Part shown: positions 28,885-64,000 of the stretch, in pieces
How positions within the stretch are numbered: the stretch's first letter is position 1
Layout: the number at the start of each line of letters is the position of its first letter
Assembly (NCBI GenBank): GCA_963575745.1
Contig: CAUYUJ010000118.1
Location: 1 to 64,000, forward strand
DNA from: Prorocentrum cordatum
Lineage: Eukaryota
Direction: 5' to 3'
Length of the DNA stretch: 64,000 nt
Made by a program: the position numbers and the translations under genes
Notes under the pieces: generated by a model
Databases searched by the model: none
The model's input: only the letters and a program-made list of their open reading frames with translations
Told to the model about the DNA's origin: nothing

Positions 28885-28989
28885 CTCGAGCAGCCCAGAC
28901 ACCCTCCGGCCGGATGCGCCCCCAGCGGTCTGCAGGGCGGCCAGGTCGGCCGCGGGCAAGAAGAGGCAAAGGCGCTCGACGGCGAGGTC
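28885..28989 (-). CDS. Exon of spliced gene (DLAVERLCLFLPAADLAALQTAGGASGRRVSGLLE), F-box-like
   Basis: AG|G acceptor, GAG|GC donor, 35 codons; leucine spacing resembles an F-box motif (inference). Confidence 0.78.
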
Positions 28990-29166
28990 CTCAGAGGAGC
29001 CCAAAACAAAACTGCACACATAGGAACGCAACAACTTGTAGGAACTCTGCGCGGAATTCGCGGACTGCCGCCGGCCAGGCCCCGGCGCCGACCCGGGAAA
29101 GCCACTCGGAGCTCCGAGAAGATGGAAGTTTATGCCATTCTTTGAAAAGAGGCAGACGCTCTCGAC

Positions 29167-29266
29167 GGTCGTCGTCGTCGCCGTCGTCGTCGTCCGTCGT
29201 CGTCAGCCGTCGTCCGTCGTCCGTCGTCCGTCGTCGTCGATCGTCGTCATCGTCGTCGTCGGCCAC

Positions 29267-29312
<46 letters not shown>

Positions 29313-30796: not shown

Positions 30797-30838
<42 letters not shown>

Positions 30839-30868
30839 GCCGTCGTCGTCGTCGTCGTCGTCGTCGTC

Positions 30869-30899
<31 letters not shown>

Positions 30900-31355
30900 C
30901 GTCGTCGTCGTCCGTCGACATCGTCGTTGTCCGTCGTCGTCGTCTGTCGTCGGCGTCGCCGTCGCCGTCCATCGTCGTCGTCATCGTCGTCGGCCGTCGT
31001 CGTCCGTCGTCCGTCGTCCGACGCCAGTCGTCGCCGTCGTCGTCGTCGTCCGTCGTCCGTCGCCCGTCGTCGCCGTCCGTCGTCCGTCGTCGTCCCCAGT
31101 CGTCGTCGTCGTCGTCGTCGTCGTCGTAGTCGTTGTCGTCGTCGTCGTGTACAGTCGTCGTCGTCATCGTCGTCGCCCGTCGTCGTCGTCGTCGTCGTCA
31201 TCGCCGTCGTCGTCGTCGTCATCGTCATCGTCGTCCGCCGTTGTTCGTCGTCGTCGTCGTCCGTCGTCGTCTTCCGTTTTCCTTCGTCGTCACCGTCGTC
31301 GTCCGTCGTCGTCGTCGTCGTCGTCGTCGGCCGTCGTCGTCGCCGTCGTCGTCGT

Positions 31356-31387
<32 letters not shown>

Positions 31388-31515
31388 CGTCGTCGCCGTG
31401 GTCGTCGTCGTCCGTCGTCCGACGTCCGTCGTTCGTCATCGTTGTCGTCGTCGTCGTCGTCGACGTCCAGGTCGTCGTCATCGTCCTCGTCGCCTGTCGT
31501 CCGTCGTCCAACGTC

Positions 31516-31546
<31 letters not shown>

Positions 31547-34500: not shown

Positions 34501-35776
34501 GGCGTCGGCGTCGTCCGTCGTCGTCGTCGTCGTCATCGTCGTGCACCGTCGTCGGCGTCGACATCGTCATCGTCGTCCGTCGTCGTCGTTGTCGTGCGTC
34601 GTCGTCGACGTCGTTGTCCATTGTCCTCCGTCGTCGTCGTCATCGTCGTCCATCGTCGTCGTCGTCGTCGTCCGCCGTCGTCGTTGTCGTCCGTCGTCGG
34701 CATCGGCGTCGGCGTCGTCCGTCGTCGTCGTCGTCGTCATCGTCGTCCACCGTCGTCGGCGTCGTCGTCGTCGTCGTCGTCCGTCGTCGTCGTCGTCGTG
34801 CGTCGTCGTCGTCGACGTCCATTGTCCTCCGTCGTCGTCGTCATCGTCGTCCATCGTCGTCGTCGTCGTCGTCGTCGGCCGTCGTCGTCGTTGTCGTCCG
34901 TCGTCGGCGTCGGCGTCGGCGTCATCCGTCGTCGTCGTCGTCATCACCGTCGTCCACCGTCGTCGGCGTCGACGTCGTCATCGTCGTCCGTCGTCGTCGT
35001 TGTCGTGCGTCGTCGTCGTGGTCGTCGTAGACCATGGTCCTCCGTCGTCGTCGTCATCGTCGTCCATCGTCGTCGTCGTCGTCGTCGTCGTCCGTCGTCG
35101 TCCTTGTCGTCCGTCGCCGGCGTCGGCGTCGGCGTCGTCCGTCGTCGTCGTCGTCGTCATCGTCGTCCACCGTCGTCGGCGTCGACGTCGTCATCGTCGT
35201 CCGTCGTCGTCGTTGTCGTGCGTCGTCGTCGTCCGTCGTCGTCGTCGTCGTCGTCCGTCGTCGTCGTCGTCGTCCGTCGTCGGCGTCGGCGTCGGCGTCG
35301 GCCGTCGTAATCGTCATCGTCGTCGTCGTCCGTCGTCGTCGTCGTCGTCGTCCGTCGTCGGCGTCGGCGTCGGCGTCATCCGTCGTCGTCGTCGTCATCG
35401 TCGTCCACCGTCGTCGGCGTCGACGTCGTCATCGTCGTCCGTCGTTGTCGTGCGCCGTCGTCGTGGTCGTCGTCGTCGTCCGTCGTCGTCGTCCGTCGTC
35501 GATATCGTCGTCATCGTCGTCCACCGTCGTCGTCGTCGTCGTCGTCATCGTCACCGTCGTCCGTCGTCGTCGTCGCGTCGTCGTCGTCGTCCGTCGTCGT
35601 CATCCACCGTCGTCGTCGTCATCGTCGTCGTCGTCGTCCGTCGTCGTCGTCCGCCGTCGTCGTCGTCGTCGTCGTCGTCGTCCGTCGTCGTCGTCCGCCG
35701 TCGTCGTCGTCCGTCGTCGTCGTCGTCCGTCGTCGTCGTCCGTCGTCGTCGTCATCGTCGTCCGTCGTCCGTCGTC
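29167..35776. repeat. 6.6-kb degenerate (GTC)n satellite with ~208-bp higher-order repeat
   Basis: Directly visible; marker CCATTGTCCTCC recurs mostly every ~205-210 bp from 32157 to 35032. Confidence 0.95.
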
Positions 35777-35800
35777 ACCGGCGGCTGCGGCGGAGAGGTC

Positions 35801-35944
35801 CTCCAGGCGGGCGGCGGGCTCCGCACGATCCGCGGCGGCGGGCTCCGCCGCGGGGCCGCTCTGCAGCCGCCGCAGCTGCTCCTCCAGGCGCAGCAGCTCC
35901 TGCACGTGCTCGTCCAGCTCCGCCTGCAGCGCCTCCTCGGCGAC
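35801..35944 (-). CDS. Exon of spliced gene (VAEEALQAELDEHVQELLRLEEQLRRLQSG...AARLE), coiled coil
   Basis: AG|G acceptor, GAG|GA donor, 48 codons, nearly all GC3. Confidence 0.8.
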
Positions 35945-35954
35945 CTCTCACAAA

Positions 35955-36115
35955 TGAAGGGGCCCCAGGACACACAAATAAATACACACAAATAAAAATA
36001 TTCCCCATAGTTTCGCATATTTTCTGGGTTTTTGTCTTCCCTCCCACTTCCCATATGTTCCCATATTTTTCTGGGAGTGGAGGATTAATTGTGTCTGTGT
36101 TTTTTTTCCCTCCTG
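35955..36115. mobile_element. Short interspersed element (TGAAGGGGCCC...CCCTCCTGA family)
   Basis: Both ends recur in reverse orientation at ~17148-17270 and 18040-18080 (bracketing the CTTAG satellite); right end also at 18400-18489. Confidence 0.6.
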
Positions 36116-37019
36116 AACAAACCCCGACCGCGGGAAAAGGCTGTGCGCCACACAGAAGGGCGCACTAATCCCACCAGCCCTCTGGGCGTAGGTGGTCCAG
36201 AGAGGCTCTTCTTCAAACCCCCCCTCCCTCCGCTTCGAGGAGGGGTTTATCACTGTTCCCTTTTGGTAAACACCCCCTTCCCCAGGCGACCGGCAGCCAG
36301 CCAGGAACAATGAGGACCCCATGACGACCCCCCCCAAACAATCCTTGTCAAGAAACAACACGGACACACGCTCTGCCTCCAAATTCGGAGCCTGCGCAAC
36401 CCACCCGATGCGGGCACCCCCCCACGATCCCTGTCAAAAAATAGAAAGTACTGCATGGGGCAAAGCCCGAAGTCATGTTCGCAAGGCCCCCGAGCACTTT
36501 GTACTGTTTTTTGACAGGGACGGCGGGAGTGTCAGCATATTGCCTGCTGCGCGCAGGGCTACCATCCCTGACAAAAAAAATACAAAGTGCGCCTCGCGAC
36601 TAAATCTGGATCATGCGCGGCCACCCCGCGATCACTGCCAAGTGGTTTTTGACAGGGACGGCGGGGGTAGTGGCGTATGACCTGCTGCGCGCCGTCCCAC
36701 CAGATACAATGATGGGCATTAATTTTCGACAAGGATGGTGGGGCCCGACATGTTTCCCGATGTGTGATGCCACATGCGTAGGCGCACCTGACACACTCTG
36801 TCTGCACGTGCCCCGAACGTGGCGCACCTGGCGCGGCTGGAGTATACGGCACACCTGACGTACGCGGAGGCACGTGGCGCATCTGGCGCACCAGGCGTGC
36901 CAGGCACGCTCGGGCCCCAGGGATGCCTGGCGCGCGTGGCGCGCCTGGTACGCGTGGCGCACCTCGGCCCAGCGTCGCGCACATAGGCTCGGCTTTGGTT
37001 CAAAGAGAGCTCCAGATAG

Positions 37020-45828: not shown

Positions 45829-46134
45829 AAATTGGACAGCACTGACTGCATAGCAAATATTACATAGCAAGGATTGCATCTACATAGCCTGTGAATCAGG
45901 ATTCCCGTAGTCAGCTCAGCCTTGGCACCTGAGGAGCTACCTTAAGTCTACGCACCTAAGCCAGCCCAGCCCACATAGCCGGTGCACCCCAGCCCACAAA
46001 GCCTGCGCATCAGCATTTCCCTAAATCCTACGTACCTAAGCCAACCCAACCCACATAGCCTGTGGCTCAGGACTGGGAGCCGGCGGTAAACCGTCAACCA
46101 GGTGTTTTGCGGTTTGCGGTCCGACCACAGGGCC

Positions 46135-46730
46135 CTACAAGGGCGGTCGGGTTGGTGCAGCCATCCCCTGTGGGCTGGATGTACCCTGAAAAACGTGATA
46201 CTCTTGAAGTATCTTGCAAGCAGAGCGGGCAATTCTCGAAGCGGCCTCAAGCTCACACTGAGTAACCGTCGCATCGGGAAGCAGGCCAAAAGCCTCCTCC
46301 GCCAACGGACGGGTAAACGTGTGCAGGCAATCACTAACCCCTTCCGCAGATTGCTCACTGATGAACTCACCGTCTAGCCACCATCCTCCCCCAGCACCTG
46401 CACTGCTAACGCCACCGTCGTACGCACCACGGATTGCGATCAATGTTTCAGTATTGTTTATATGTTGTTGAATGCTTCTGCACCTCGATTGTAATGGTAG
46501 ATGTCTGATTTCCCAAGTCAGTCGGTCGGCGCGGTCATTGCCTCCACGATAGTGATGACGCCACATGTCATACCCTGTGGCTGGGCCCTGCAGCTTAAAA
46601 TTTCGACAGGCGTCGTCTAACAGATCAATAACCTCCCCCACCTGCGATCGGTATATATTGTTGTTGCAATTTCACCTTCCCCTCATCCAGTTGGTTATCA
46701 GCATGGAGTCGCCCAACAGCTCCATCGCAA
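46135..46730 (-). pseudogene. RNase H domain, permuted motif order
   Basis: MELLGDS (GDS at 46713-05) ... HHYRGGNDRAD ... RGAYDGG..GAGGGW ... TVTQCELEAA; one in-frame TGA. Confidence 0.85.
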
Positions 46731-46866
46731 CTCCCACCTCGTCGCTCGAAGCGGACCTCATTTTCAAAGTTTGCTGCGAGGCGCCTGACAATACGATCAA
46801 GCGCCGCCTGTGTATACTGATTGTCCTCCTCCTCCTCCTCCTCTGTGTATCTGACCTCCCTCCTCC

Positions 46867-49800
46867 TTAAAGATAAAGCCCTCCGTCATATGTGAAATGC
46901 CCGCCGCCACACAGTCGGGCCGTAGCAAACTCGCGAAGACCACGTTCACTCCAGTCGAGATGGTGCCACCAGTTCACACCAGCAGCCTGCACAAATAGGA
47001 AGTCCCACGGCCTGTAGCCTGTAGGTAACCTCCTCCCTGTTAGTCTGGTTATCTCCGTCCTCCTCCCACTTGCAGTAATCATAGCCTCCCTCCTCTCCGT
47101 CCACTCCCCCAATCCATGCGGCATCGCAACACGTGAAACAACAAAGGGCCTTGACACGTCATCCGACACAGGCGGTGCTGGTGTCGGAGCCTCCCCAGGC
47201 CGGGTGGTCGAGAGCCTCTGTCGTTGGCCCCGCACCGTCTCACGGAAGATTCTCGCACGCTGACGCCGATTGGTATGTGCCTCCTCCCCCGACGCACGCG
47301 CTAACATAGGTGCACACGTATGCATACAGGCGAACGATGCCACATCCTTTGCCCAGTCAAACTGCTTTCTGAAAAATCTGTGGACCAATGATTGGAGGCC
47401 GCACCTAGCAAAGTGTTGGCGACCATAGCGCAGCCGCCTCTGAGTATACACAGTCCAATCCTCACTCGCCTTCTTACGAAGACCACCAATGATCGCCAGC
47501 AGTTGACCCTCCCACGCATATAACTTCTGAATAGTTCCCTCATCCGCCGTCATACCTTCACATGTATACAAAACAACGCACTGCAACCGTGCAATGTAAC
47601 GCATAAAACGATCACGCATAGGTAACTGTCTACAGCGATAGAACTGTACATCACACATCCACGCACGCCTGGCACGCTGTAAATGACAAAGTAGATCCCG
47701 ATGCTCACTCCAGTCATCAAAGAGTTCCACTCCCAGAGCCGACATCTGTCGAAGACGTGGCAGGACCAACTCCTCACCATACTCAGGGACCGACACACGA
47801 AGCTCGGTATCAGAACAGCGAGGCCAGCCTCCACACAAGAGGTATCCAAGCGATGAGGGTTTCCACCGCAGGCCCGCCTGAGCCAACGGCACCGTCAGCA
47901 TAGACATCATCTCCCGAAGTTCGTCCAGGGACCGTGCACATACATACAAGTTGTCCGCCCACAGAGCATGCGCAATCCTCCTCCTACCTCCTCTCAAGGA
48001 GGTCTCCAATTCATAACCATAGTCGTTCTCCTCCCACTGCCGTACCACCTTCTCCCAAAGATACACCGAGACAGCCTTGAACAAGAATGGGCTCTCCACT
48101 CCTCCCGTGCGGATACTCCTATCCCAAGACACCCAATCCGTCCACCGCACACCTTCAAAGGACATCTGACACACGGTCTCATGCATAGGCTCCAAGAGGG
48201 CAAATATGAGCTCCGAGGGGAACCCCAATGAAACCGGACTGTTATACGCCAACGTCAACGTCACATGGTCGAAGCACTGTAGTACGTCTGCACTCCCAAG
48301 ATATAATGATTCCCCTTTGCCCCAGAGACACGCGTGCTGTGAGAGCCTCTTTAGTACCGCCGTGATTTCACGTGGTTTCCTACCTGCTGCAAAGCCGAAC
48401 AAGCACGTATGAGGTCGGAGCTTTGTCAAATCTTCCTCCGCAGCTGTACCATTTGGACATAAGAGGTATGAGGCATATTGTTCTAGTGTCGTTGAGTTGG
48501 GTCATTTGGGGGCTCTTCGGGATCAGAGTGGCAAGGAATTTTCTCCAGCACTGCGGCGTGAGATTCTCCCGACAGGCCAGGCGCTGAAAGAAGTCACGCA
48601 CACGGCGCACACACGCCCAAGGAAGCAACTTGAGCATTTCGGGCGACACGTCATCGCATGACGCTGCTCCTCCCCTCTTGAGTCGTGCACGAGCTCGCAA
48701 CACAAGGGACATGCGAATGTCTAGCGTCCGATGCGAGGCCGCTGCTGCACACCTCGCCGTCTCCAACGTCTGTACACTAGCCCTGCGAGCCTCCTCGCAT
48801 TGGATAGTGGCACAAGCAAACCGTCCGATCTCCACCTCCCACTCCTCCAAGTCCTCAGATCTATGGACTGGCCGCCGACACAATCGCCGTATTGATGAAT
48901 TCGCCTTCACAAGTGGGTGCTCCCACCGCCTGAACGCACTGTGTCGTCACATCCTCCACTTCCTCCCACTCCTCCATGTCCTCCATCATAGTCTCCGTAC
49001 TGTCCGTGCTGTTACCCTCCTCCTCCACCACGGTCCTAAGCTGACGCGCCACACGAGGATGGGAACGGCTGACCAGCTCCCAGCCCTCCTCGGGCGTCGC
49101 GGCAGCAGACCTGACAGGAATTGTCCCGCATGTGGTGAAAGCAATCTCCGCCTCCCGAGCGTAAGCCTGAGGATCCTCTGGAGCCCAGTGGACCAAATTG
49201 GAGGCCCTCGTCGCCTTCGGCTTCTGCCTGCGTACACCCGTCGGAGCACATGGTAACGCGGCATGTAACAGAGCATGATCCGATACCGCAGTCAGCGCCG
49301 TCGCCCCCAGTGGTTGGATGAATTTAACCCCCACCTCCGACTGTGCACCGGGTAACCAATATAGTCCAAGACACTGGGAGCCCCAAGACCGGACAGGATC
49401 CAAGTAGGCCTCCTGGGTCCAAATGTGTTGGCCATCACAATGCTCCACCTCCCACAGAACTGAAGAAGCGCCTCCTTCATTGCCTCCCTCCTCCTCCAAC
49501 GAACACGTGAAGCCCCACCCGAGTAGACCCGAGTTGATTCCAGCAATCCCTCCCCCGTAAGTTGTAGACCGTTACAGCTCGTATCTGGCGACAGCTCCAC
49601 GTTGGCATCCGTGAGCAACACCACCTTCTTGGGCCTCCTAGGGTACCTGTGGAAATACTTCTCGAGGCCCTCATTCATATTATATATAATGTTCTGAAAC
49701 TTCTCATTCGTAATACCCTCAGCATTGGGCAAATAGCATGAAACAACCGTGACCGTCGTAAATCCTATGGCAACGTAACCTTTCCCTTTGAACGTAGCAA

Positions 49801-50038
49801 GGCGGTGCTTCCGCCAATTATCCTTATACAGGATGGCAACCTTGCGGGAGCTGTCAAAAATCGTGCGAATAGCACCTTCACCCGAACCTGACAGCTCAGA
49901 ACGATGATCCCAAAGATTTTGACACTCTTGTACCCCCAGGAGTGTCACATCCGCCCCTTTCATCGCACTAAGTATTGTGTGGATAGTAAGTTGTCCTCTC
50001 CGTCGTAGGTTCCACGAGCCTAGACGGACCTCTCGTCG
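46867..50038 (-). pseudogene. ORF2 APE + RT, frameshifted
   Basis: APE: GSWNL, GVQEC, YLP, TDAN, LDYI, SDH; RT: AASCDD, TRTICL, FGF, DVLQCFD, RTGGVESP, WADN, ALG. Confidence 0.9.
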
Positions 50039-51095
50039 TCACGGCGCTGATAGTCGCGCCTTGAGGCCTGCAATGTCCAAATTCGGCTCATATGATTTAA
50101 TCTCGTCCCGAATCGTCCATCCCTCCTGCGCATGCGGCCCTGGCTGAAATATCATGACAATCTGACCTGCATTCTGCGCCTCACTGGATGCACGCGCCCA
50201 CACATATGTTTGTCCCAGACCACTGCCCAGCACTGAGCGCATGATGGTTCCGTTCCTGCACACCTGAGCCCATACAGCATGACACTGGCCTGAAGCTTGA
50301 CCATGTACAATCTCCCATGGGGCGACCTCCACAGACACCCGAATATTGGCCGCCTCGGGCCACGGGAGTCTATTGATATCATCACTCGCAAGGGCTAGAT
50401 TAGATAACAGTGACCGTCTAAGTGCCCACAACTTCTGTCCTGGAGTACCTTTCTTGAAATAGATTCTCAAACGCCCATATCCGAAGTACTCCCTACCCGA
50501 GTTTGCGTTCGTCGTCGCCTCCTCGTCGATACAATTGCACCACTCTCCAGACTGAATGATGCGTTGTTTCATTGAGTTGAGCCGGGTCGTCAGGACATCC
50601 TGGGCCATCATCTGACGGGATCTCAACCCATGGTTGTTCCAATTAGTAACCCACCCCTTGCACTCAACAAAACTTGGCTCCCACTAAAAGTTGAAACGCC
50701 CTGGAGCTATGCCTGACCCCTAGTTTGAAGCCGCTGGCGCTCTAGTGGACGTCTCTGATGCCGTCCCGTCGCTGCCAACAATATATATATATATAAAGGA
50801 AAAAAACAAGAAAGGTCTCCAGATCAGCTTGCCTACGCGAGAGAGCCTGCATATCATGATTGAAAGATTTTCGGACGGCATCCACCTTACTGTCAACCGC
50901 TGTAATTGCCGTTTTGACCGTCTCGATTTTCCCGTCAACTGCTGTGAGAACGGCCGCCGTCACACTCTGCGTTTGTTGTGCCATCATTCTCTGAAGCTCA
51001 CTCAACAGATTTGCTGATCCCGGCTGCTCCTCCTCCCTCATCCGTTTACGTTCAGTCTCAGTCTCTGCCATCGCCACATCACTCGACCCCGCCAT
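50039..51095 (-). pseudogene. ORF1 (coiled coil + RRM-like), disrupted by a T/(TA)n run near 50780-50810
   Basis: Heptad segment VDGKIETVKTAITAVDSKVDAV; position upstream of APE. Confidence 0.65.
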
Positions 51096-51204
51096 TGCAG
51101 CTGATGGTGGGTAACCGAAACCACTCGACTCCACACTCGGAGGCAGCCTCCGACTTTCCCACGAAGGGCTGGGTTGTGAATCCCACGCCGTGATGGACGT
51201 GTAC

Positions 51205-51640
51205 AACAGGCAATGAAACGCGTACTCTGACAATCAATAAATACGAACTCCAAACAGTCAATGAAAGTGTACTCCGACAGTCAGTGGATGAGTACTCCCA
51301 CCGTCAATGAAGTGTACTCCGACAATCAATGAGTCTGTACTCCCACAATCAATGAATGCGTACTCCGACAATCAATGAAGCGTGTACTGCAACAGTCAAT
51401 GAAGTGTGTACTCCAACAAACAATGAAAGAATACAAAGTGCAGCCTCTCAACGAAGACGTACCCCGACAGTCAGTGAATGTGTACTCCGACCACAATGAA
51501 TGCAAACTCCGACAATCAATGATGTGTACTTCGACAATCAATGAACGTGCACACCGTCAATCAATGAAGCGTGTACTCTGACAATCAATGAAGTGTGTGC
51601 TCTGACAATCAATGAATCTGCTCGCCGACAATCAATGAGC
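51205..51640. repeat. ~23-bp tandem monomers in the LINE 5' UTR
   Basis: GTGTACTCCGACAATCAATGAA-like unit repeated well over a dozen times. Confidence 0.9.
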
Positions 51641-51769
51641 ACGTACGATACACAGGCCGTGTACGGTAATGAGAACCAAACAAAGCAGCACGGCACAATG
51701 CCGCTCGAGACGAGAGCCCCAAACGGGAGCCCCCAGCCGCCAGACCCCCGAGGAGGGAGGCAACCAGGT

Positions 51770-51888
51770 TTTTTGCGGTTTGCGGTCCGACCAGGAGGCC
51801 CTACAAGGACGGTCGGGTTGGTGCAGCCACACCCTGTGGGTTGGATGTACCCTGAAAAACGTGATACTCATTGAGTATCTTGCAAGCA
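51770..51888 (-). mobile_element. Short 3' fragment of the same LINE family in tandem
   Basis: Closely matches 46104-46222 and follows the duplicated CAACCAGGT. Confidence 0.85.
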
Positions 51889-52290
51889 ATGAATTATCAA
51901 TTAACAATTATGAATCTCTTGTCATCCTCGAACGAGGCAGAGAAAAGTAAGACCTCATGCAATGAATTACCAATTATCAGTTGTAAATCCGAACCCGGGA
52001 CCCTCGCAGAGCTCTGGAGAGACCAGATCAGTTCCCAGATAACAGGAGAAGTTGATATAAGTCTGAAAACTGAAGGAATGTTTTTTTCGGGTTTTACAGA
52101 ACGTTGGTTCCTCCTAGTCTTTTAATCCGAAAAATGGAGCTAGAGCCCTGGAAATTTCACCGTCGAATGCGCCATGATTCACTACGGAGAATAAAAATCT
52201 GGATTCCCGAAGCGAATTTCAAAATCTCTCACAATCTCCGATAAACCGACCCAAGTGTCACACATTGTCCGCCCGGGCCGGCTGGGTCAA

Positions 52291-53755
52291 CTGGGCGCCG
52301 GCGGTAAACCGTCAACCTTTCTTACCGCCGGGGGACTCGTAGAGCTTCCTGACCATATATTATGTCCAAAGAATTAGCAGAGAACGAAGAGTTTTTCAGC
52401 CCGAGCGCTGATAGCAGACTGATCTCAGGCGTCTAGTGATATCCCATTGCTGTGCTGAACAGTTCTATAGCTCATCTGCAGCGTGTAGAAATACCATTAG
52501 GGAGAAAATAGCAGAGTACAAATCCGTGTTTGGCGTCTGCGCTCACAGACCAAAACCAAGCGTCTAGATGCTTCGCGCCTCATGATGTCCTTCTGATTTT
52601 TCGGCCGAAGAGCTCTCGAGCTGCTCTGCAGCTCGAGTTCAGTGAAGAAATTCACCATCATTTGGGAAAAAATGTCCGTCGAATACGAATAGTTTTGTGA
52701 ATCTAGCTCGGGTAGCAGACCGAGTTCAGACCGCTCGATGCAACAGACGAACACGCCCAATGCTTCTGCATCAGTTTCTGTGCGTACCAGCTCTGTAGCT
52801 CTCCTACAGCCCGAATTCAATACAGAAAATAGACAACATCTGTCAAGATGACTCCAAGAATACGAATAGTTTTGCGGACCTAGCCCGAGTAGCAGACCCA
52901 GTTCAGACCTCTGGATGCAACAGACGAACGGGCCAGATGATTCCGAATCAGTTTCTGTGCGCATCAGCTCTGTAGCTCTCCTAAAGCCCGAGTTACGTGC
53001 GAAAACGGACAGCACCCCTCAAGATGACTCGAACGATACGAATAGCTTCGCGGACCTAGCTCGAGTAGCAGACCGAGTTCAGACCTCTGGATGCAACAGA
53101 CGAACGCGCCTGATCATTCTGCATCGGTTTCTGTGCGCATCAACTCTGTAGCTCTCCTAGAGCTCGAGTTAAGTACAGAAAACCGACAGTCCCTGTCGAG
53201 ATGACCCGAGCGATACGAATAGTTTTGCGGACCTAGCTCGGGTGGCAGACCGATTTCAGACCTCTGCATGCGACGGCGGACGCGCCTGATGTCTCCGAAT
53301 CGGTTTCTGCAATTACCAGCCCTGTAGCCCCCCTACAGCCCGAGTTAAGTACAGAAAACCAACAGCACCTCTCAAGATGACTCGAACAATACGAATAGTT
53401 TCGCGGACCTAGCTCGGGCAGCAGACCGAGCTCAGACCTCTGGTTGCAACAGACGAACGCGCCTGATGATTCTGAATCGGTTTCTGTAAGTATCAGCTCT
53501 GTAGCTCTCCTACAGCTCGAGTTAAGTACAAAAAACCGACAACGCATGTCAAGATGACCCCAAACGGCCGATCCCGCCCGTGTGCTTTTTGGCAGTAATA
53601 TCTACCCGATCGGGCTGAGATTAAGACGGCGAGCGGGAATAATATCGAATATCACGGGAAAAATACTAGAGCTCAAACGAATGGTTGAATTTCGAGAACA
53701 AAATTTTCAACCGACCAAAAGTCAGCAAAAGGTCCGTCGAGATTTTTCTTGCCAG
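52291..53755 (-). mobile_element. Stem-loop unit with ~177-bp internal tandem repeats
   Basis: Hairpin 52298-52331; CAGACCTCTG marker at 52904, 53080, 53257, 53433; homologous to units at 55954, 57305, 60738. Confidence 0.75.
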
Positions 53756-53783
53756 CTGGGCGCCGGCGGTAAACCGTCAACCT

Positions 53784-55953
53784 CTCTTTTTTTTTGCGGT
53801 TTGCGGTCCGCCACTAGAATCCGAATCCGAATCGGCGGAGCAGTGCAACTGAGCCCCCACCATCTTAGGCCGCAGCAGAGCGCACGCCACCTTAGCAGCA
53901 GCTCTCGTCAGGGCAGCGCAGGCAGCTAGTTCACAGCAGGTTACCGTGCTACCAGGAGGCAAGCTCATCGCCTCCTCGGCCACATCGTGCCAATGGAAGC
54001 TGTGCGAGCTGGTGCAGGAGGAAGAGGAGGAGGAGGAGGAGGAGGAGATGGGAAAATCAACCTGCACGCTGGAACCCCTACCTACAACGCCAATCTGAAG
54101 CCACCACCCACCTCCACATCCTTCATTACTGACACCCCCATCGAATGCACCACGGAGAGCAGTCTTACGAGTACTGAGGAACTTATCATATGCAAACCAG
54201 CGAGTAATAGTTTGGCCACCTCTGGCCTCCCACGACAATTATCCGCACGCTCATTACCCTCACGAAAGAAATGCTTATACAGATTCTGTCCCGATGCAGG
54301 TGAGGTCAGTCCCCATCCAGACAGCATCGATACCGTATTTTGTAGTGTTCCCACCAGTCGTACATACTGCTTGTTGCGAATCTGCCACTCACCACACATC
54401 CAGTTTACAACAGTCTTACTATCTCCCAAGATCTCCATCACAAGACGCTCAATATTCTCACACCTCCACTCCGTTTCATTCTCATAATTAGCGGCAATAC
54501 GTTTGCTCATCCTCTCATTTATCTCTCTCTCCTCCTCCTCCTCCGCCTTCACATGTCTCACACCAGGCGGCCTGGGTAGAACAAACAAGTCGAACAAATG
54601 TTGCATGCCAATCACAGTCAGCAAATGCTTGCAGTATTTCTCACGGGACCCAGCGGAACTGTCGAACGAGAGGTACCACTCGCAACCAAAGAAATCGCAC
54701 AAGCACCAGTCCCACACAGTATGTCCACGGGGAGGGCCGCCCATGTTCATGCGTGTGAGCTGCTTCCTATCTTTTACAGGCAATGCTAGAATACATATGT
54801 CACGATGTTCCGTCCACTTCCCCCTTCCATGTAACATGGCCAGCCTAGATATCATCCATTCCCGTGACATGTCCGACTCCTCAGGTATGGCAGGCTGATC
54901 ATCTGGTGTCCGCCGGCGACAGCCACTCGACATCTGGGATATCTGAGATACATGATATGATTGAGAAGACGCCGCCGCCGCCATCGCCCGAGTTTTCCCC
55001 TGACGCCGATTTGGTACCGTCTCCCCCTCCTCCTCCTCTGTGTGTGTTGTGTATCTCCTCATACGAATACTTGCAGCAACTGAGACATCCTTAGCCCAAT
55101 CCCAACAACGAAATATCCATATCTGCACCGCACTTCGGAATCCAAGCCCAGCAAAACTCTGCCGTCCCGCTTTGTATCGCCTACGTTGAAACTCAGACCA
55201 GCCTTCAGTTCTCCGCTTGCGTATACCTGACATTATAGCTAGACATCTGCCTTCAAAATAGTGAACAGCAGCAATGGTAGAATAGTCGGGCGTTCTGCCC
55301 TCACAGTTGAATAATAATGCAGCAATCACTTTAGCTTGATAGCGAGTAAATCTTTCAGCCAAGTCAATCCCAGAGCAGCGGTAATACGCGATTTCCCCAA
55401 AGAACATCCTCTGGGCTTTCTGGAGCATGGCCTCTGAGTCCGAGTGGTCCTTCCAGGTCTCCTCCAGAGTGGCTCCCAGGATCTCAAACGCTTGAACACG
55501 CGGTAGGACCACTTCTCGGGTCCCAAGAGCGGCGTCACTAGACGGCACCAGCACACGGATATCCTGCTCAGGGGACGGCGGGATGCCAGGCGGCGCACCA
55601 AAGTAAATATACATCAAAGATTTCGGCTTCCAGGTCATTCCTGCACTCATCAGCGGGATACTCATGTCACGCACCATCAACTCAAGGTCAGTGCGGGTCC
55701 TCGCATACAACAAAAGATTATCTGCCCAGAAACTGTGGGTCATACGCTCACCGTTGAACATGCGCTCATCATTTTCCAATTTGATACCGTACTGCGTTTC
55801 TTGCCTCCATCTGTCGATGACATCTCTCCAGAGTACAATAGAAACTGCCAGAAAAATCATTGGTCCCTCTACTCCTCCCGTTCGAATAGATTTGTCCCAA
55901 TAGACCGCTGACGATGCCTCGATTCCCTCGAAGCTGGCCACGCACTGATTATT
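53784..55953 (-). mobile_element. 5'-truncated RT-RNase H LINE inserted in the hairpin loop
   Basis: RTGGVEGP, FWADN, EILGDS, FREGNERAD, then frameshift to RGAFDGG...TVTCCELAA; the two hairpin halves flank it with ACCT on both sides. Confidence 0.92.
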
Positions 55954-58900
55954 ACCTTTCTTACCGCCGGGGGACTGGTAGAGCTTCCTGACCATATATG
56001 ATGCCCAAAGAATTAGCAGAGAACGAAGAGTTTTCCAGCCCGAGCGCTGATAGCAGACTGATCTCAGGCGTCTAGTGATATCCCATTGCTGTGCTGAACA
56101 GTTCTATAGCTCATCTGCAGCGTGTTTGGCGTCTGCGCTCACAACAGACCCAAACCAAGCGTCTAGATGCGTCGCGCCTCATGATGTCCTTCTGATTTTT
56201 CGGCCGAAGCTCTCTCGAGCTGCTCTGCAGCTCGAGTTCAGCGAAGAAATTCACCATCATTTGGAAAAAAATTGTCGGTCGAATACGAACAGTTTTGTGA
56301 ACCTAGCTCGGGTAGCAGACCGAGTTCAGACCGCTCGATGCAACAGACGAACGCTCGCAATGCTTCTGCATCCGTTTCTGTGCGCACCAGCTCTGTAGCT
56401 CTCCTACAGCCCGAATTCAATTCAGAAAATGGACAACATCTGTCAAGATGACTCGAAGAATACGAATAGTTTTGCGAACCTAGCCCGAGTAGCAGACCCA
56501 GCTCAGACCTCTGGATGCAACAGACGAACGGGCCTGATGATTCCGAATCAGTTTCTGTGCGTATGAGCTCTGTAGCTCTCCTACAGCCCGAGTTACGTGC
56601 GAAAACGGACAGCACCTCTCAAGATGACTCGAATGATACGAATAGCTTCGCGGACCTAGCTCGAGTAGCAGGCCGAGTTCAGACCTCTGGATGCGACAGA
56701 CAAACGCGCCTGATTATTATGCATCGGTTGCTGTAAGCATCAGCTCTGTAGCTCCCCTAGAGCTCGAGTTAAGTACAGAAAACCGACAGTCCCTGTCGAG
56801 ATGACCCGAGCGATACGAATAGTTTTGCGGACCTAGCTCGGGTAGCAGACCGAATCAGACCTCTGCATGCGACAGGCGGACGCGCCTGATGTCTCCGAAT
56901 CGGTTTCTGCAATTACCAGCCCTGTAGCCCCCTACAGCCCAAGTTAAGTACAGAAAACCGACAGCACCTCTCAAGATGACTCTAACAATACGAATAGCTT
57001 CGCGGACCTAGCTCGGGCAGTAGACCGAGTTCAGACCTCTGGATGCAACAGACGAACGCGCCTGATGATTCTGAATCGGTTTCTGTAAGTATCAGCTCTT
57101 GTAGCTCTCCTACAGCTCGAGTTAATTACAAAAAACGACAACGCATGTCAAGATGACCCCAAACGGCCGATCCCGCCCGTGTGCTTTTTGGCAGTAATAT
57201 CTACCCGATCGAGCTGAGATTAAGACGGCGAGCGGGAATAAGATCGAATATCACGGGAAAAAATACTAGAGCTCAAACGAATGGTTGAATTTCGAAAACA
57301 AAATTGGGCGCCGGCGGTAAACGGGGGGACTCGTAGAGCTTCCTGACCATATATTATGTGCGAAGAATTAGCAGAGAACCAATAGTTTTTCAGCCCGAGC
57401 GCTGATAGCCGACTGATCTCAGGCGTCTAGATACAATTCGCTATTGCCCCTGGTAGTTCCCTTCGCATTGCTGTGCTGAACAGTTCTACAGCTCATCTGC
57501 AGCGTGTAGAACCAAGAAAAACAGTACCATTAGGGAGAAAGTAATAGAGTACGAATCGTGTTTGGCGTCTGCCCTCACAACAGACCCAAACCAAGCGTCT
57601 AGTGGCTTCGCGCCTCATGATCTCCTTCTAATTTTTCGGCCCAAAAGCTCTCGAGCTGCTCTGCAGCTCGAGCTCAGTGAAGAAATTCACCACCATTTGG
57701 AAAAAATATCGGTCGAATACGCACAGCTTCGCGAACCTAGCTCGGGTAGCAGACCGAGTTCAGACCTCTCGGTGCAACAGACGAACGCACCTGATGCTTC
57801 TGGATCGGTTTCTGTGCGCATCAGCTCTGTAGCTCTCCTACAGCCCGAGTTCAATACAGAAAATGGACAACACCTCTCAAGATGACCGGAAGAATACGAA
57901 TAGTTTCGCGAACCGAGTTCAGACCTCTGGATGCAACAGACGATACCGGCCTGATGATTCCAAATCAGATTCTGTGCGCATCAGCTCTGTAGCTCTCCTA
58001 AAGCCCGAGTTACGTGCAAAAACCGACAGCACCTCTCAAGATGACTCGAACGATACGACTAGTTTCGCAGACCTAGCTCGAGTAGCAGACCGAGTTCAGA
58101 CCTCTGGATGCGACAGACGAACGCGCCTGATTATTCTGCATCGGTTTCTGTGGGTACCAGCTCTGTAGCTCCACTCGAGCTCGAGTTAAGTACAGAAAAC
58201 CGACAGTCCCTGTCACGATGACTCGAGCGATACGAATATTTCCGCGAACCTGCTCGAGTAGCAGACTGAGTTCAGACCTCTGCATGCAAAAGGCGGACGC
58301 GCCTGATGTATCTGAATCAGTCTGTAATTACCAGCCCTGTAGCCACCCAACAGCCCGAACTAAGTACAGAAAACCCACAGCACCTCTCAAGATGACTCGA
58401 ACGACACGAATAGTTTCGCGGACCTAGCTCAAGCAGCGGACCGAGTTCAGATCTCTGGATGCAACATACGAACGCGCCTGATGATTCTGAATCGAGTACG
58501 TGTGCGTACCAGCTCTGTAGCTCCCCTAGAGCTCGAGTTAAGTACAGAAAACCGACGACGCGCGTGTCAAGATGACCCCGAACGGCCGATCCCGCCCGTG
58601 TGCTTTTTGGCAGCAATATCTACCCGATCGACCTGAGATTAAGACGGCGAGCGGGAATAAGATCGAATATCACAGGAAAAAATACTAAGGAGCTCTAACG
58701 AATTGATGAATTTCAATAACAAAATTTTCAACCAACCAAAAGTCAGCAAAAGGTCCGTCGAGATGTTTCTTGCCAACTAGCTCTCCAGCGCCCCGGAATT
58801 ACTCTTAAGCTTCCAGCAACTAGATAAGGGAAGCTCTACGAGTTATTTTCAACCGACCAGAAGTCATCAAAAGGTCCGTCGAGATTTTTCTTGCCAACTA

Positions 58901-59100: not shown

Positions 59101-59208
59101 AGGTGCGGAAAATACCGGTTCTCAAAACGAATCTTCAAATCTCTCAGAAAGTTCGCCCAACCGGCCCTAAGTTCACACTTGAAACCGGCGGTAAACCGTC
59201 AACCAGGT

Positions 59209-59712
59209 TTTTTGAGTTTGAGTCAGGGCGCGGACAGCTGTGACAGCTGAGCCCTAAGACTCCCAAGCGGAGCACAGGGTAGCTAGAGAAGGCACCTCTT
59301 ATCATCACACTGCCGAGCCACTGAGGCATAGGCATCGGAATAGGATGCAGGAACAAGGAAAAGGATGCAGCACAACATGTGAGAATGCAAAGGTGTTGGA
59401 ACAGGTTAGAGAATGGTGTAAGAGCTGGTTGAAACGCTACCCAAAACGTGTTCCACGGCCATATAAAGCCGTTTTACTGCATTGATCAAAGCAACAGCCG
59501 ATCAGCAGCATATCCTTCCACAGACCGCCCTCCAACGAAGAAACCGTGGAGGCCGACTAGTTCATGTTTACGTTGTATATCACAGGCGAAGCAGAGTAAA
59601 AAGTAAAGTTGAAGTCTTGAACTCGTAGACCTCTTTTCTTGCCAAGCGCTCCTCGGAAGTGAAGGAAGCTTAAGCCAGAGCCAAACAACTCTAAAAAATC
59701 GGCCCCATACAA
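59209..59712 (-). mobile_element. Unrelated ~500-bp insert at the same hairpin-loop site, probably a LINE 3' fragment
   Basis: Follows CCGGCGGTAAACCGTCAACCAGGT; minus-strand tail CTCAAACTCAAAAA; only faint RNase H-like remnant; right boundary approximate. Confidence 0.55.
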
Positions 59713-62218
59713 ATATTTTTGCGGACCTAGCTCGAGTAGCAGACACTGTTCAGAGCTCTAGATGCTTCAGCCGAACGCCCTTGATCATTCTGGATCCGCT
59801 TCTGTGCGCATCAGCTCTGTAGCTGTGCTACAGCTCGAGTTAAGTGCAGAATACCGACAGCGCCTCTAAAGAGACCTTCAGAAATACGAATAGTGTTGTG
59901 GACCTAGCTCGAGTAGCAGAACGAGTTCAGGCCTCTCGATGCAACAGACGACGGCGCCCGGTAATACTGAATCGGTTTATGTGCGCACCAGCTCTGTAGC
60001 TACTCTAAATCTTGAGTTGAGTACAGAAAACCGACATCACTGGTCAAACTGGCTCAAAGAATACAACAAGTTTTACGGACCTAGCTCGAGTAGCAGACCG
60101 AGCTCAGACCTCTCGATGCAGCAGAAGAACGCGCCTGATGATTCTGAATCAGTTTCTGTGGGTATCAGCTCTGTAGCTCTCCGAAATCTCGAGTTAAGTA
60201 CAGAAAATCGTGAACGCGTGTCAAGATGACTCGGAACACAGTCGGTTCCTCCAAGTGTGTTGATAGTAATACTGCACCTACGGACCTGAGAATTTGACTG
60301 GCAGACGCGGCATAATCCACTACAGGTGCGAAAAATCTGCTTCTCTAAATGAATTGTCAACTTGGTAGCGTCCGAAACCCTGAGAGCAAAGACAACTGGG
60401 AGCCGGCGGTAAACCGTCAACCAGGTTACCGCCGGGAGCCTCGTAGAGCTCTTTTCTCGCACGGCGCTGCTTGGAACACGTGGGGGGGAGCTCTCTCATA
60501 CGCGAGCTAAAAACTCGAAAAAATATGTTTTTAAAAATAACCCCCAAGGACGGTTCCGCCAAGTGTTTTGATAGTTGTACTGTAGCTGCGGACCTGAGAA
60601 TTTCACTGGTAGACGCGGCACAACCCACTACAAGTGCGAAAAAAGACCAGTTCTCAAAACGAATGTTCAAATCTCTCACAAAGTTCGTCCAACCAACCCA
60701 AAGTTCGCACATTGTCCGTCGGGGCCGGGTCGGCTAACTGGGCGCCGGCGGTAAACCGTCAACCTTTCTTAGCGCCGGGGGACTCGTAGAGCTTCCTGAC
60801 CATATATTATGTCCAAAGAATTTGAAGAGAACGAATAGTTTTTCAGCCCGAGCGCTGATAGCTGACTGATCTCAGGCGTCTAAGGATATCCCATTGCTGT
60901 GCTGAACAGTTCTATAGCTCATCTGCAGCGTGTAGGAAAAAATCAAGGAGAAAATACCAGAGTACAAATCCGTGTTTGGCGTCTGCGCTCACAACAGACC
61001 CAAACCAAGCGTCTAGATGCTTCGCGCCTCACGATGTCCTTCTGAATTTTCGGCCGAAGAGCTCTCGAGCTGCTCTGCAGCTCGAGATCAGTAAAGAAAT
61101 TCACCATCATTTGGAAAAAATGGTCGGTCAAATACGAATAGTTTTGTGAACCTAGCTCGGGTAGCAGACCGAGTTCAGACCTCTCGATGCAACAGACGAA
61201 CGCTGCCAATGCTTCTGCATCACTTTCTGTGCGCACCAGCTCTGTAGCTCTCCTACAGCCCGAATTCAATACAGAAAATGGACAACATCTGTCAAGATGA
61301 CTCGGAAAATACGAACAGTTTTGCGGACCTAGCCCGAGTAGCAGACCCAATTCAGACCTCTAGATGCAACAGACGAGCGGGCCTGATGATTCTGAATCAG
61401 TTTCTGTGCGCATCAGCTCTGTAGCTGTGCTACAGCCCGAGTTACGTGCCAAAACGAACAGCACCTCTCAAGATGACTCGAACGAGACGAATAGTTTCGC
61501 TCACCTAGCTCGAGTAGCAGACCGAGTTCAGACCTCTTGATGCAATAGACGGACGCGCCTGATTATTCTGCATCGGTTTCTGTGCGCATCAGCTCTGTAG
61601 CTCCCCTAGAGCTCGAGTTAAGTACAGAAAACCAACAGTCCCTGTCGATGACCGAGCGATACGAATAGTTTTGGGGACCTAGCTCGAGTAGCAAACCGAT
61701 TTCAGACCTCTGCATGCGACAGGCGGACGCGCCTGATGTCTCGGAATCGGTTCCTGCAATTACCAGCCCTGTAGCCTCCCTACAGCCCGAGTTAAGTCCA
61801 CAGAAAACCGACAGCACCTCTCAGATGACTCGAGCAATACGAATAGTTTCGCGGATCTAGCTCGGGCAGCAGACGGAGTTCAGACCTCTAGATGCAACAG
61901 ACGAACGCGCCTGATGATTTTCTGTAAGTATCAGCTCTGTAGCTCTCCTACAGCTCGAGTTAAGTACAAAAAACCGACAACGCCTGTCAAGATGACTCGA
62001 AACGGCCAAATCCCGCCGCAACGCTTTGTGGCAGTAAAAGGTACCCGATCGGGCTGAGATCAAGACGGCGAGCGGGAATAAGATCGAATATGGTGGGAAA
62101 AAATACTACAGGTCCAACGAATGGTTCAATTTCGAAAACAAAATTTTCAACCGACCAAAAGTCACCAAAAGGTCCATCGAGATTTTTCTTGCCAACTAGC
62201 TCTCCACCGCCCCGGAAC
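59713..62218 (-). mobile_element. Partial and complete stem-loop units with empty hairpins at 60403-35 and 60745-78
   Basis: Same 177-bp repeats and termini. Confidence 0.75.
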
Positions 62219-62244
62219 TGGCGCCGGCGGTGAACCGTCAACCT

Positions 62245-64000
62245 GGTCTGCGGTCTGCGGGGCCCGATTCGAGCCCCCTTAGGGGGCAGGGCCAGCGGTA
62301 GGATTACCTACAGGCAACCTAAGCACTAACAGCGGAGCTGTGCGATATACAAGTCAGCGTAGCTGTGCATATATGATACAACAGCGTAGCTGCACAGGAA
62401 TATACACACATCAAGAAACAGTGGGGCTACGCATGTATCTTACAACAGCGGAGCTATGCAGATATTATACACAAACAGTCACCTGCCAAGTTGTACGTGT
62501 ATACACATCTCGGCAATGCCATTGAGAAGAGAATGTGCAGCTGCCAACTCAGCCTGTGTGATCGTGCAATGGCTAGGGATCATGAAACCTCTGCGGCCAA
62601 CTCCAGGGTGCCATCCACCCTGCACAAGTCCAGGGGGAAGCTGGTGAGGAGGAAGAGAGGGAACAAGATAAACATCAATAACCCAGCCACACGAGGTGCC
62701 ACGCTCACACCGCCCACCGTCAAAAGCTCCTCTAAGTGCACGAACAATATAATGACCCGATCTAATATGATAAAGAGTGTTATGATTCCAACGAACATCA
62801 GAAGTTACTTTACCCTCACGTGCAAGATGTGTCTCATAGTCCGCCTCATCGTTGCCCTCCCTATACACCCATTTCCACATATCCCTTCCCACTTCAGCCG
62901 TGACAAGATGATGGTCCTCACTCATTCTGTGGAGGCGGTTCTGCATACCCTTGATCGTGCGGCGGTATACTTCATTATGACAGCGATATCTTCCATTAAG
63001 CCAGCGCACAACACACTGGCTATCCCCACGGAGCTCCAAGCCATATCAACCCCCTTCCCCACGCCAAGTGGTTTCATCATCATTTATCGCGGCCAGTCGT
63101 TTCGCCACCCGTTCATTTTCCCGTCGTTGCTGCTCCTCAGACTTCTCCTCCCCCTTCTCCTCCTGCTTGAACTCACCCGTGAAGGGATCCCGAAGAAGGC
63201 AGAACTCGAGAAGATCATCCAAGTCCAGGGCGGCCAGGGTACCCACCAGGAAAGAACGCCAGCCAGTTTCATGCCAGACCATCGTGCGATCCCAATGAAC
63301 CCCGCGCGTGTGCTCGAAGACCTCGAACCAAGGCCTGAGTCCCGTCAAGACTCGATGACGACAGGTTCTAGTAAACCTTCGGCCCCCAGGGAGAGCTCTA
63401 ACATGTACGTCGCGCTGCTCAGTCCACTCCCCCGACGCGTGCATCATCGTCAAGGCGCTCTGCATACTGGCAGTGGGCAATCCTCCTTCCTCCTCCCGTG
63501 CATAGGTACGGCGTACCCGCTTACGAACAGGCTCATGTACATGTTGTGAATCGTGATGCTCATATGCCGTGTTCTCCGATATACGTCTGCGAACTGATCT
63601 ACTTTCCAAGGAAGATGCGCTCTGTGCCTTTCTCCTACACGAACTGTTGAGCTGTCTGGCATTCGGGGTAGGCGAGGGAACCGATAACTCCAAGAAACGC
63701 TGCGAACCACCAAAAATATCAGGATCTCGTGGCTCATGATAAAGAATGCCCTGACTGAGTGCGTCCTCATCCACCCGACTATGTTCCTCATGGATTGTGC
63801 TCACAACATGTTTGGCGAAGAGCCACTGGCGATGAAGGGCGAGCTGGACCATCGAAGGCTTACGGGCCCACTTCAATAAGCGACGGCCACCCTTAATCCT
63901 CCTGCCCCAGTACTCTCCCCAGGACTCCGTGATCTTCTTTTTGAGACGTCTCATGGTGGACAAGAAGTTGCCTTCAGCTGCATGTATCTGTTGGAGACTA
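62245..64000 (-). mobile_element. 3' part of a third divergent LINE of the RNase H family, running out of the window
   Basis: Begins at the hairpin loop GAACCGTCAACCT; tail CCGCAGACCGCAGA; post-RT region 63046-63963 shares motifs with the other two copies (GEWTE.R, KRLAA...E..W). Confidence 0.88.
62479..63039 (-). CDS. RNase H domain, permuted motif order, uninterrupted
   Basis: ELRGDS ... WVYREGNDEAD ... RGAFDGG...SCGW ... TITQAELAAA. Confidence 0.88.
   Translation of the reverse strand: MELRGDSQCVVRWLNGRYRCHNEVYRRTIKGMQNRLHRMSEDHHLVTAEVGRDMWKWVYREGNDEADYETHLAREGKVTSDVRWNHNTLYHIRSGHYIVRALRGAFDGGRCERGTSCGWVIDVYLVPSLPPHQLPPGLVQGGWHPGVGRRGFMIPSHCTITQAELAAAHSLLNGIAEMCIHVQLGR

Follow-up and report, generated by a model that had tools for sequence, protein, structure and literature searches.

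Long interspersed nuclear elements (LINEs), the retrotransposons that lack long terminal repeats (LTRs), combine their reverse transcriptase (RT) with different accessory domains. R2 has a restriction-like endonuclease and no RNase H; an RNase H occurs together with an apurinic-type endonuclease (APE) in the clades I, Tad1, LOA, Ingi, Nimb, and others. Several LINEs are site-specific, such as R1 and R2 in ribosomal DNA and the Tx1-group elements in repeats. The DNA described here is a 64,000-nt stretch of Prorocentrum cordatum (contig CAUYUJ010000118.1, positions 1-64,000; hereafter the window), in which three copies (A, B, and C) of an APE-type LINE family, called here the WADN elements, lie at 44-64 kb on the minus strand. 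The RT of copies A and B reads W-A-D-N at motif C, in place of the FADD or YADD of LINE-1 and R2. Our overall reading, which we regard as likely, is that they represent a LINE clade with a working RT that bears Asn in its active site, which would integrate by target-primed reverse transcription (TPRT) at a satellite hairpin, and in which a Thr in motif B arose later and recurrently. The domain set, consisting of open reading frame 1 (ORF1), APE, RT, and a C-terminal RNase H-like domain, is the same as that of the I/Tad1/LOA/Ingi/Nimb-type LINEs, from which the clade differs in the permuted order of its RNase H motifs and in the Asn replacing the second catalytic Asp of RT.

An Asn at the same position of motif C has been described outside the LINEs. 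According to passages of a preprint (bioRxiv 10.1101/2021.11.23.469668), the change of YXDD to YVDN is a distinguishing trait of the nematode BEL/Pao belpaoviruses (Atlas virus and Tas), including an intact element, and is thus lineage-wide, as in the WADN clade. The BEL/Pao elements, however, have LTRs, Gag-Pol(-Env), protease, and integrase and belong to an unrelated RT lineage, in contrast to the non-LTR, APE-bearing WADN elements, and the Asn common to the two groups is convergent; Pfam scans of the ORF2-length relatives listed no integrase or protease family. Passages of another report (PMC9752661) describe working polymerases with Asn in birnavirus VP1 (ADN), where the activity is lowered, and in the L proteins of ss(-)RNA viruses (GDN). 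These enzymes are RNA-dependent RNA polymerases and not RTs, and offer a mechanistic analogy only. The question raised by the first-pass annotation of this DNA, whether the motifs are already standard in a described clade, therefore has a divided answer: none was found among LINEs, whereas the Asp-to-Asn change is already a trait of nematode BEL/Pao elements as those preprint passages present them. Literature text searches, with most subscription journals and Repbase Reports beyond their coverage, retrieved no description of a LINE clade with an xADN motif C, and this large clade is apparently undescribed. The three LINE Environmental Clades (LEC1-3), known only from Tara Oceans metagenomes (Lescot et al. 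2015; PMC5029228), are likewise marine environmental LINEs and may or may not include this clade, the relevant passages of PMC5029228 holding no motif data.

Active-site motifs of the reverse transcriptase

The motifs of the two copies that include the RT core are located as follows.

47950-47961, minus strand: motif C in the RT of copy A, encoded as tgg gcg gac aac (W-A-D-N) and falling on the YADD of R2Bm
55717-55728, minus strand: motif C in the RT of copy B, encoded as tgg gca gat aat (W-A-D-N)
48088-48117, minus strand: RT motif B of copy A, SIRTGGVESP, with Thr in place of the Gln of other RTs
55861-55890, minus strand: RT motif B of copy B, SIRTGGVEGP
48268-48294, minus strand: RT motif A of copy A, SADVLQCFD, with the catalytic Asp and the Ala-Phe steric gate kept

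Between copies A and B, the codons for Ala, Asp, and Asn of motif C all differ, in each case synonymously, while the Thr codon of motif B is ACG in both. Since the two copies are homologous, the shared motif is inherited and not a product of chance. These readings agree with the first-pass annotation, which had reported W-A-D-N with different codons in both RT-core copies (re-read at 47961-47950 and 55728-55717), SIRTGGVE(S/G)P in place of the QG motif in both (re-read likewise, with RTGG placed on RQG by the profile alignment), and canonical motifs in an RTE-like element of the same window, the open frame of which indeed contains QGCPLSP and YADD.

A PDB search with the single sequence gave no match, and a family profile (43 members) was needed for detection; the profile matched R2Bm (8gh6; E, 4e-31), other R2 proteins, and human LINE-1 ORF2p (8uw3; E, 6e-27). 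In the alignment to R2Bm, 'vWADNifllA' falls on 'AYADDLVLLA', and 'rqGGvetP' falls on 'RQGDPLSP'. The AlphaFold model of the 544-residue RT frame of copy A has a mean predicted local distance difference test score (pLDDT) of 78.5 and a predicted template modeling score (pTM) of 0.80; taken in 10-residue blocks, its core scores mostly 80-97 in pLDDT. In this model, residues 178-181 and 184-189 form the two strands of the motif C hairpin, Trp181 ending the one and Asn184 starting the next. The best Foldseek matches of the model are R2 and L1, and superposition (VIA-align) gave a Z-score of 17.1 with a root-mean-squared deviation of 3.6 over 379 residues for ORF2p, and a Z-score of 17.0 for R2.

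The clade thus shares the fold and the motif order of LINE-1 ORF2p and R2 RTs (8uw3, 8c8j, 8gh6, and 8ibz), and keeps their motif A Asp, first motif C Asp, steric-gate Phe, motif D Lys, and motif E Leu-Gly. It deviates from them in motif C, as stated above, and in motif B, where R(Q/T)GGvE(S/T)P stands against RQG(D/C)PLSP. The variant feature is the canonical Y/F-x-D-D box, which both window copies lack; the other defining features of APE-type LINEs are present. Pfam RVT_1 scores the clade members at 25-41 bits versus 126 bits for the RTE-like element of the window; the score is below the cut-off in three of the seven matching members scanned, and copy B has no match. The RTE-like element is the following.

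23463-26492, minus strand: RTE-like element with an uninterrupted 1009-residue APE-RT frame, containing LDWSKAFD, QGCPLSP (24387-24407), and YADD (24264-24275)

It is possibly a recent, intact copy. The RTE clade has a short ORF2 with APE and RT only, canonical QG and YADD motifs, and a high RVT_1 score, all of which the RTE-like element shows, whereas the WADN elements have ORF1 and RNase H in addition and are at most 22% identical to the RTE-like element.

Conservation of Asn across the clade

With HMMER, 1.84 billion cluster representatives were searched, and 602 of them matched at E <= 1e-3, including 170 at <= 1e-10; the following counts come from 149 of the best 150 of these 602 hits, realigned to copy A. 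Among the 122 representatives that cover motif C, the fourth position is Asn in 111, Ser in 2, and Tyr in 1, the third position is Asp in 119, and the first is Trp in 115; 88 read exactly WADN. The motif A Asp is retained in all of the 107 sequences covering it. Ala76/Phe77 (the steric gate), Lys214 of motif D, and the Leu-Gly of motif E are invariant or at least 90% conserved, and the Lys/Arg motifs of the fingers are also retained.

At the DNA level, codons were compared among copies A and B and three loci (L001-L003) obtained by a search of metagenome contigs. In these five sequences, Ala is encoded by GCC, GCT, GCG, or GCA, Asp by GAC or GAT, and Asn by AAC or AAT, the residues being unchanged in 5/5. 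Intact relatives of 1200-1480 residues occur as near-identical variants with [W/Y]ADN: five ORF2 proteins of 1455 residues, pairwise identical at 1449-1454 of the 1455 positions, all read YADN, and the ORF2 families of 1306, 1299, and 1263 residues all read WADN. P0171 (1480 residues, 45% identical to copy A) combines SIRTGGVDGP with WADN. As read from these alignments, the Asn at motif C is a conserved, lineage-level, and selected state and not a result of decay. The family-level trait that the first-pass annotation had proposed in preference to random decay is thereby upheld by the synonymous codons, by the near-identical intact relatives with xADN, and by the alignment of the family at the motif codons that it had called for; young intact relatives carrying YADD, which would have refuted the proposal, were not found among the near-identical intact families.

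EukProt assigns eight short fragments, with 48-91% identity to copy A, to Pyramimonas sp. CCMP1952, a label that is unconfirmed, and almost all the other relatives are ENA, Logan, JGI, or GOS contigs. Viral contigs gave 47 pattern matches, none of which is a relative of the clade.

Insertion at a satellite hairpin

A 21-base target motif, GGTTGACGGTTTACCGCCGGC, occurs eight times on the minus strand of the window versus zero expected, and the 3' ends of all five elements examined (copies A, B, and C, a short element at 59.2 kb, and an A-like fragment at 51.8 kb) adjoin it.

46079-46099 (copy A), 53762-53782 (copy B), 62223-62243 (copy C), and 59184-59204 (the fourth, short element), minus strand: occupied target motifs
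52297, 60402, 60744, and 44702, minus strand: unoccupied target motifs
46095-46102 (3' copy) and 51761-51768 (5' copy), minus strand: candidate 8-bp target-site duplication of copy A, CCTGGTTG
55961-55983: 5' flank of copy B, CTCTACCAGTCCCCCGGCGGTAA
51769-51900, minus strand: remnant (~130 bp) of the 3' end of an A-like element at this target, with 91% identity to 46095-46222
52204-53757, minus strand: satellite unit of ~1.55 kb, the boundary of which carries the target and the interior of which has five to six tandem repeats of 176 bp
55954-57305, 57324-58778, and 60651-62197: further satellite copies

The empty sites have the arrangement CTCTACGAG-N3-CCCGGCGGTAA-(GAAA or CCT)-GGTTGACGGTTTACCGCCGGC, which forms a perfect 10-bp inverted repeat with a 14-nt loop, and the target motif spans the loop and the 3' arm of this hairpin at the boundary of the satellite unit. 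The folding energy of the hairpin is unremarkable against shuffled sequences (z = -1.67); the 10/10 inverted repeat is seen directly in the sequence. Copy B is inserted exactly between CCGGCGGTAAGAAAGG and GGTTGACGG. Copy A is placed just downstream of the tail of the older A-like fragment, so that the same site was hit twice. The element tails consist of a duplicated heptamer, (CCGCAAA)2, followed by A(n). Together with the 5' truncations and the target duplication, these repeat- and A-rich tails are the usual marks of TPRT, and no LTRs appeared in the self-comparison of the window. The junctions are what TPRT by the elements' own RT would leave, with trans-mobilization formally possible.

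The summed contig depth of the satellite is 262,849 in run X1 versus ~20-120 over copy A (a depth that is not a copy number), and is very high in three runs; the ~1.55-kb unit is a major satellite of the source organism. Rfam at its gathering thresholds has no match anywhere in the window, and the target is therefore not a known RNA gene. As with R1, R2, and Tx1 elements, diverged lineages of the clade appear independently at one exact position of a multicopy target, and the recognized sequence stays intact downstream of the insertion so that it can be hit again. Judged by these junctions, the family is one of site-specific LINEs, and it differs from R1, R2, and Tx1 in that its target is a hairpin loop at the boundary of a 1.55-kb satellite.

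At 59209-59625 on the minus strand, an element of ~420 bp with the tail ACTCAAACTCAAAAAA occupies this target site; it lacks coding similarity to copies A, B, and C, and is a non-autonomous partner or else derives from another lineage by heavy truncation.

Motif B and its relation to motif C

Motif B is covered in 112 proteins, where the position of the Gln of other RTs is Gln in 78, Thr in 30, and another residue in 4, and the most frequent strings are RQGG (29), KQGG (25), and RTGG (20). Both motifs are covered in 107 proteins, of which 72 combine Gln with Asn, 24 Thr with Asn, 6 Gln with Asp, and 1 Thr with Asp. An RT tree was built of 63 rows, namely 60 database proteins with at least 230 core residues, copies A and B, and the RTE-like element of the window as the outgroup, with 89 proteins omitted for short coverage. 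Copies A and B are sisters (support in the Shimodaira-Hasegawa-like approximate likelihood ratio test (SH-aLRT), 97) within a group that includes P0003, P0004, and P0005, all with Thr and Asn (SH-aLRT, 99). Thr requires at least four origins on the starred branches of the tree. When the 17 Thr rows, a group named after the tree had been seen, were forced into one clade, the log-likelihood was lower by 161 (p = 0.0006 in the approximately unbiased test). The rows with Asp in motif C (WADD) cluster and need one to three changes; the tree is rooted on an outgroup branch of length 3.42, and this rooting is unsafe for calling WADD a reversal.

Four positions beyond the Gln/Thr of motif B, at position 136, stands an acidic residue, which in the window copies is the Glu of GGVE (48094-48096 in copy A and 55867-55869 in copy B).

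The first-pass annotation had proposed that WADN and RTGG are a co-evolved pair, which jointly re-tuned the active site, possibly with altered fidelity or substrate use. Both motifs do stand together in the two window copies and in their closest relatives (P0003, P0004, P0005, P0171, and P0002), and other LINEs differ from them in the residue that follows QG and in the conserved Glu of GGvE. The acidic residue at position 136, present in 93/112, also accompanies Asn in the raw counts, being found in 89 of the 102 members with xxDN and in 3 of the 7 with WADD (89/13 versus 3/4 with and without it). On the starred branches, however, this link of acidic residue 136 with Asn184 reduces to one phylogenetically independent pair. 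Since Asn goes mostly with Gln, Thr has several origins, and a single Thr clade is rejected, the pair proposal fails, and we consider it unlikely. Furthermore, retention of the steric-gate Phe makes a switch to rNTPs unlikely, and together with the retained Lys/Arg of the fingers it argues against a changed substrate class. The alignment and the tree point instead to WADN as the first and near-universal state of the clade, and to RTGG as a later, recurrent change that is not its partner. Apart from any pairing with Thr, acidic residue 136 could be a candidate compensator for the lost carboxylate.

A putative circularly permuted RNase H

The C-terminal domain of the three window copies is RNase H-like.

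46135-46866, minus strand: RNase H-like domain of copy A, with LLGDS (46719-46705), RGGNDRAD (46548-46525), YDGGVS (46422-46405), and TVTQCEL (46269-46249)
53927-54432, minus strand: RNase H-like domain of copy B, with ILGDS (54432-54400), REGNERAD (54264-54241), FDGGVS (54145-54128), and TVTCCEL (53947-53927)
62545-62862, minus strand: RNase H-like domain of copy C, with REGNDEAD (62862-62839) and TITQAEL (62565-62545)

In nine of nine C-termini compared, four acidic residues are invariant and follow one another as D (GDS), D (RExNxxAD), D (FDGG), and E (TxxEL), and the same order of motifs is found in L003 (1400-1973) and in proteins including P0003, P0005, and P0171; this is not the canonical order of RNase H, D-E-D-D. 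The first ~95 residues of the domain resemble the C-terminal half of RNase H: RVT_3 is matched by five of the nine members, residues 26-95 of the first member falling on RVT_3 positions 63-120 of 123, and residues 70-137 of PDB RNases H align to profile positions 18-96 (E, 2e-6 to 3e-4). The N-terminal halves of PDB RNases H align weakly to profile positions 114-173. A profile of the second half of the domain alone (three sequences) gave only a chance-level match in the PDB (E, 1.3), so that homology to the N-terminal half is argued from these weak second stretches together with the invariant D and E. A feature search placed the domain next to the RVT_3 and RNase_H clusters (score, 0.91). Word-indexed protein searches gave 0, 2, and 5 hits, the 5 being clade members only, with no canonical RNase H among them. 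Taken as a whole, the comparison indicates a probable circular permutation, with the C-terminal half of RNase H preceding the N-terminal half. Literature text searches of the coverage given above, judged by titles and abstracts, retrieved no permuted RNase H described for retrotransposons.

Organization of the three copies

46103-51760, minus strand: copy A, full-length and frame-broken, delimited by ORFs, tblastn, and junctions
53783-55954, minus strand: copy B, 5'-truncated inside RT just upstream of motif B, delimited by tblastn and junctions
62244-64000, minus strand: copy C, consisting of the post-core part of RT, RNase H, and the 3' untranslated region (UTR), its 5' part lying past the end of the window and the RT core being absent
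49292-50038, minus strand: APE-type endonuclease of copy A, identified by tblastn with the N-termini of relatives and a weak Pfam match
50039-51095, minus strand: ORF1 of copy A in two frames, with a coiled-coil part (from the Met at 51095) and, at 50683-50042, a C-terminal domain

Copy A has a 5' UTR with tandem repeats, ORF1, ORF2 (APE, RT, and RNase H-like domain), and the tail GGACCGCAAACCGCAAAA-CA, and carries, as seen in the ORF list, one in-frame stop and no fewer than four frame changes, while copy B has a single frame break, in the RNase H region. The proteins of copies A and B are 36% identical over 436 aligned residues, and their DNA is alignable only in the last ~60-130 bases at the 3' ends. 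The endonuclease, located N-terminal to RT, contains the motifs QE, ANTF, DYI, and SDH, the last of which (49269-49283) falls in another frame in copy A. Its matches to Pfam Exo_endo_phos are 18.1 bits (E, 0.0024) for copy A and 23.6 bits (E, 5e-5) for P0031, both below the cut-off of 24.5 bits.

The C-terminal domain of ORF1 in copy A is homologous to ORF1 of the metagenome relative L001 (E, 3e-13). Both in copy A (50039-50041) and in L001 (1662-1664), the TGA that ends ORF1 is followed by CG, and ORF2 continues in frame with no nearby ATG. This arrangement suggests that ORF2 may be reached by readthrough of the UGA or in some similar way. At 51206-51638, the 5' UTR of copy A is made up of ~18 copies of a 23-nt repeat, and that of L001 also has short tandem repeats, unlike those of copy A in sequence.

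One polyA metatranscriptome and three runs marked 'DNA?' or '?' contain contigs 85-99% like copies A and B. At the frame-break positions 46736, 46907, and 54238/54239, other copies represented by contigs in the runs differ by a single base. None of the differences listed for the run contigs lies inside the WADN codons, from which invariance there across the family does not follow.

Elsewhere in the window, the first 40 kb consist predominantly of very long GC-rich low-complexity arrays (at 8400-10700, at 28600-36200, and elsewhere), and one low-complexity frame with RRRRPSSSSVVVV-like repeats is open for 1496 codons. The dinoflagellate spliced-leader motif has no match in the window.

Alternative explanations

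Several points weigh against a clade with a working Asn-bearing RT. In HIV-1 RT, the D186N replacement is used, according to passages of PMC1976467 and PMC10415136, to disrupt metal binding at the polymerase site, so that tolerance of Asn is not a given. All three copies in the window are broken or truncated, and the intact relatives are gene calls on metagenome or transcriptome contigs. The conservation sample is the best 150 of the 602 hits, and even there the clade is not uniform, since 8 of the 122 representatives have Asp at motif C position 4, all as WADD. The RNA evidence is also weak: the contigs 90-99% like copy A come from one polyA metatranscriptome that possibly contains DNA, and those over copy A span only 46112-47876 and 51600-51773, outside the WADN codons. 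The HIV-1 mutant lends itself to the reading that the Asn-bearing RT is catalytically dead and that the elements depend for their copying on a canonical RT acting in trans, a role for which the intact-looking YADD element at 23463-26492 of the same window would be at hand. We nevertheless find this quite improbable, because a dead RT would not keep all its motifs, the Asn, and the long frames over hundreds of lineages ~1 substitution per site apart, and because the 3' end of the clade, (CCGCAAA)2-A(n), and its target site are its own and unrelated to those of the RTE-like element.

The damage in both window copies, and the fact that Asp-to-Asn is a single G-to-A transition, might equally recall pseudogene decay, such as deamination of GAY to AAY, coinciding in two copies; given the Asn in 111 of 122 representatives and in intact ORFs of 1200-1480 residues, and third codon positions that vary while the residue stays constant, such a coincidence is hardly credible, unless a single mis-assembled locus stands behind the database hits. 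Comparably remote is the view that these sequences are a domesticated, immobile set of host genes, which would account for the strong conservation and the related contigs in an RNA library, and which is contradicted by the multiple diverged copies with 5' truncation, target duplication, endonuclease, and ORF1, and by repeated insertions into one satellite site within 20 kb. Editing of the mRNA from AAY to GAY was also considered and rejected, as new insertions would then be made from the edited template and the Asn would not stay fixed.

Proposed mechanism and implications

A clade with a functional Asn-bearing RT would account for the locus as follows. Copies A, B, and C would represent three diverged lineages of a single APE-type non-LTR clade, as old insertions that have suffered damage, the clade having a presumed layout of ORF1, an in-frame TGA, and an ORF2 that comprises endonuclease, RT, and RNase H-like domain. 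The RT keeps its universal pair of metal ligands, namely the Asp of motif A and the first Asp of motif C, and the Asn fixed in place of the second Asp of motif C (xADN, in most cases WADN) would be the normal, selected state of a working enzyme. The Asn-bearing site itself may thus catalyze cDNA synthesis, with Asn probably hydrogen-bonding to, or weakly liganding, metal A. Integration would proceed by TPRT at the hairpin loop bounding the abundant satellite, leaving 5' truncations and a short duplication, and the Gln-to-Thr change of motif B (RTGG) would have followed later in several sub-lineages, including that of the window. From the fixed Asn, the intact near-identical copies, and the clean junctions, we infer that the second carboxylate of motif C is dispensable in a non-LTR RT in vivo, as had been seen before in nematode BEL/Pao elements. 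A wider proposal, namely a large undescribed marine-protist LINE clade with three linked derived traits (an RT with two carboxylates and Asn, a permuted RNase H, and hairpin-loop integration, with an in-frame UGA on the way to ORF2), is put forward tentatively, with somewhat more doubt than confidence.

The YXDD box is treated as a signature of a live RT, and here a whole LINE clade has Asn fixed in it; annotation rules that call RTs without DD dead would wrongly discard this clade. The clade is a natural system for the role of the third carboxylate in metal use, speed, and fidelity. If the wider proposal is true and the enzyme has a metal or fidelity profile of its own, the clade would be a natural counter-example to the rule that D186N is dead, and its RT may be a new RT scaffold.

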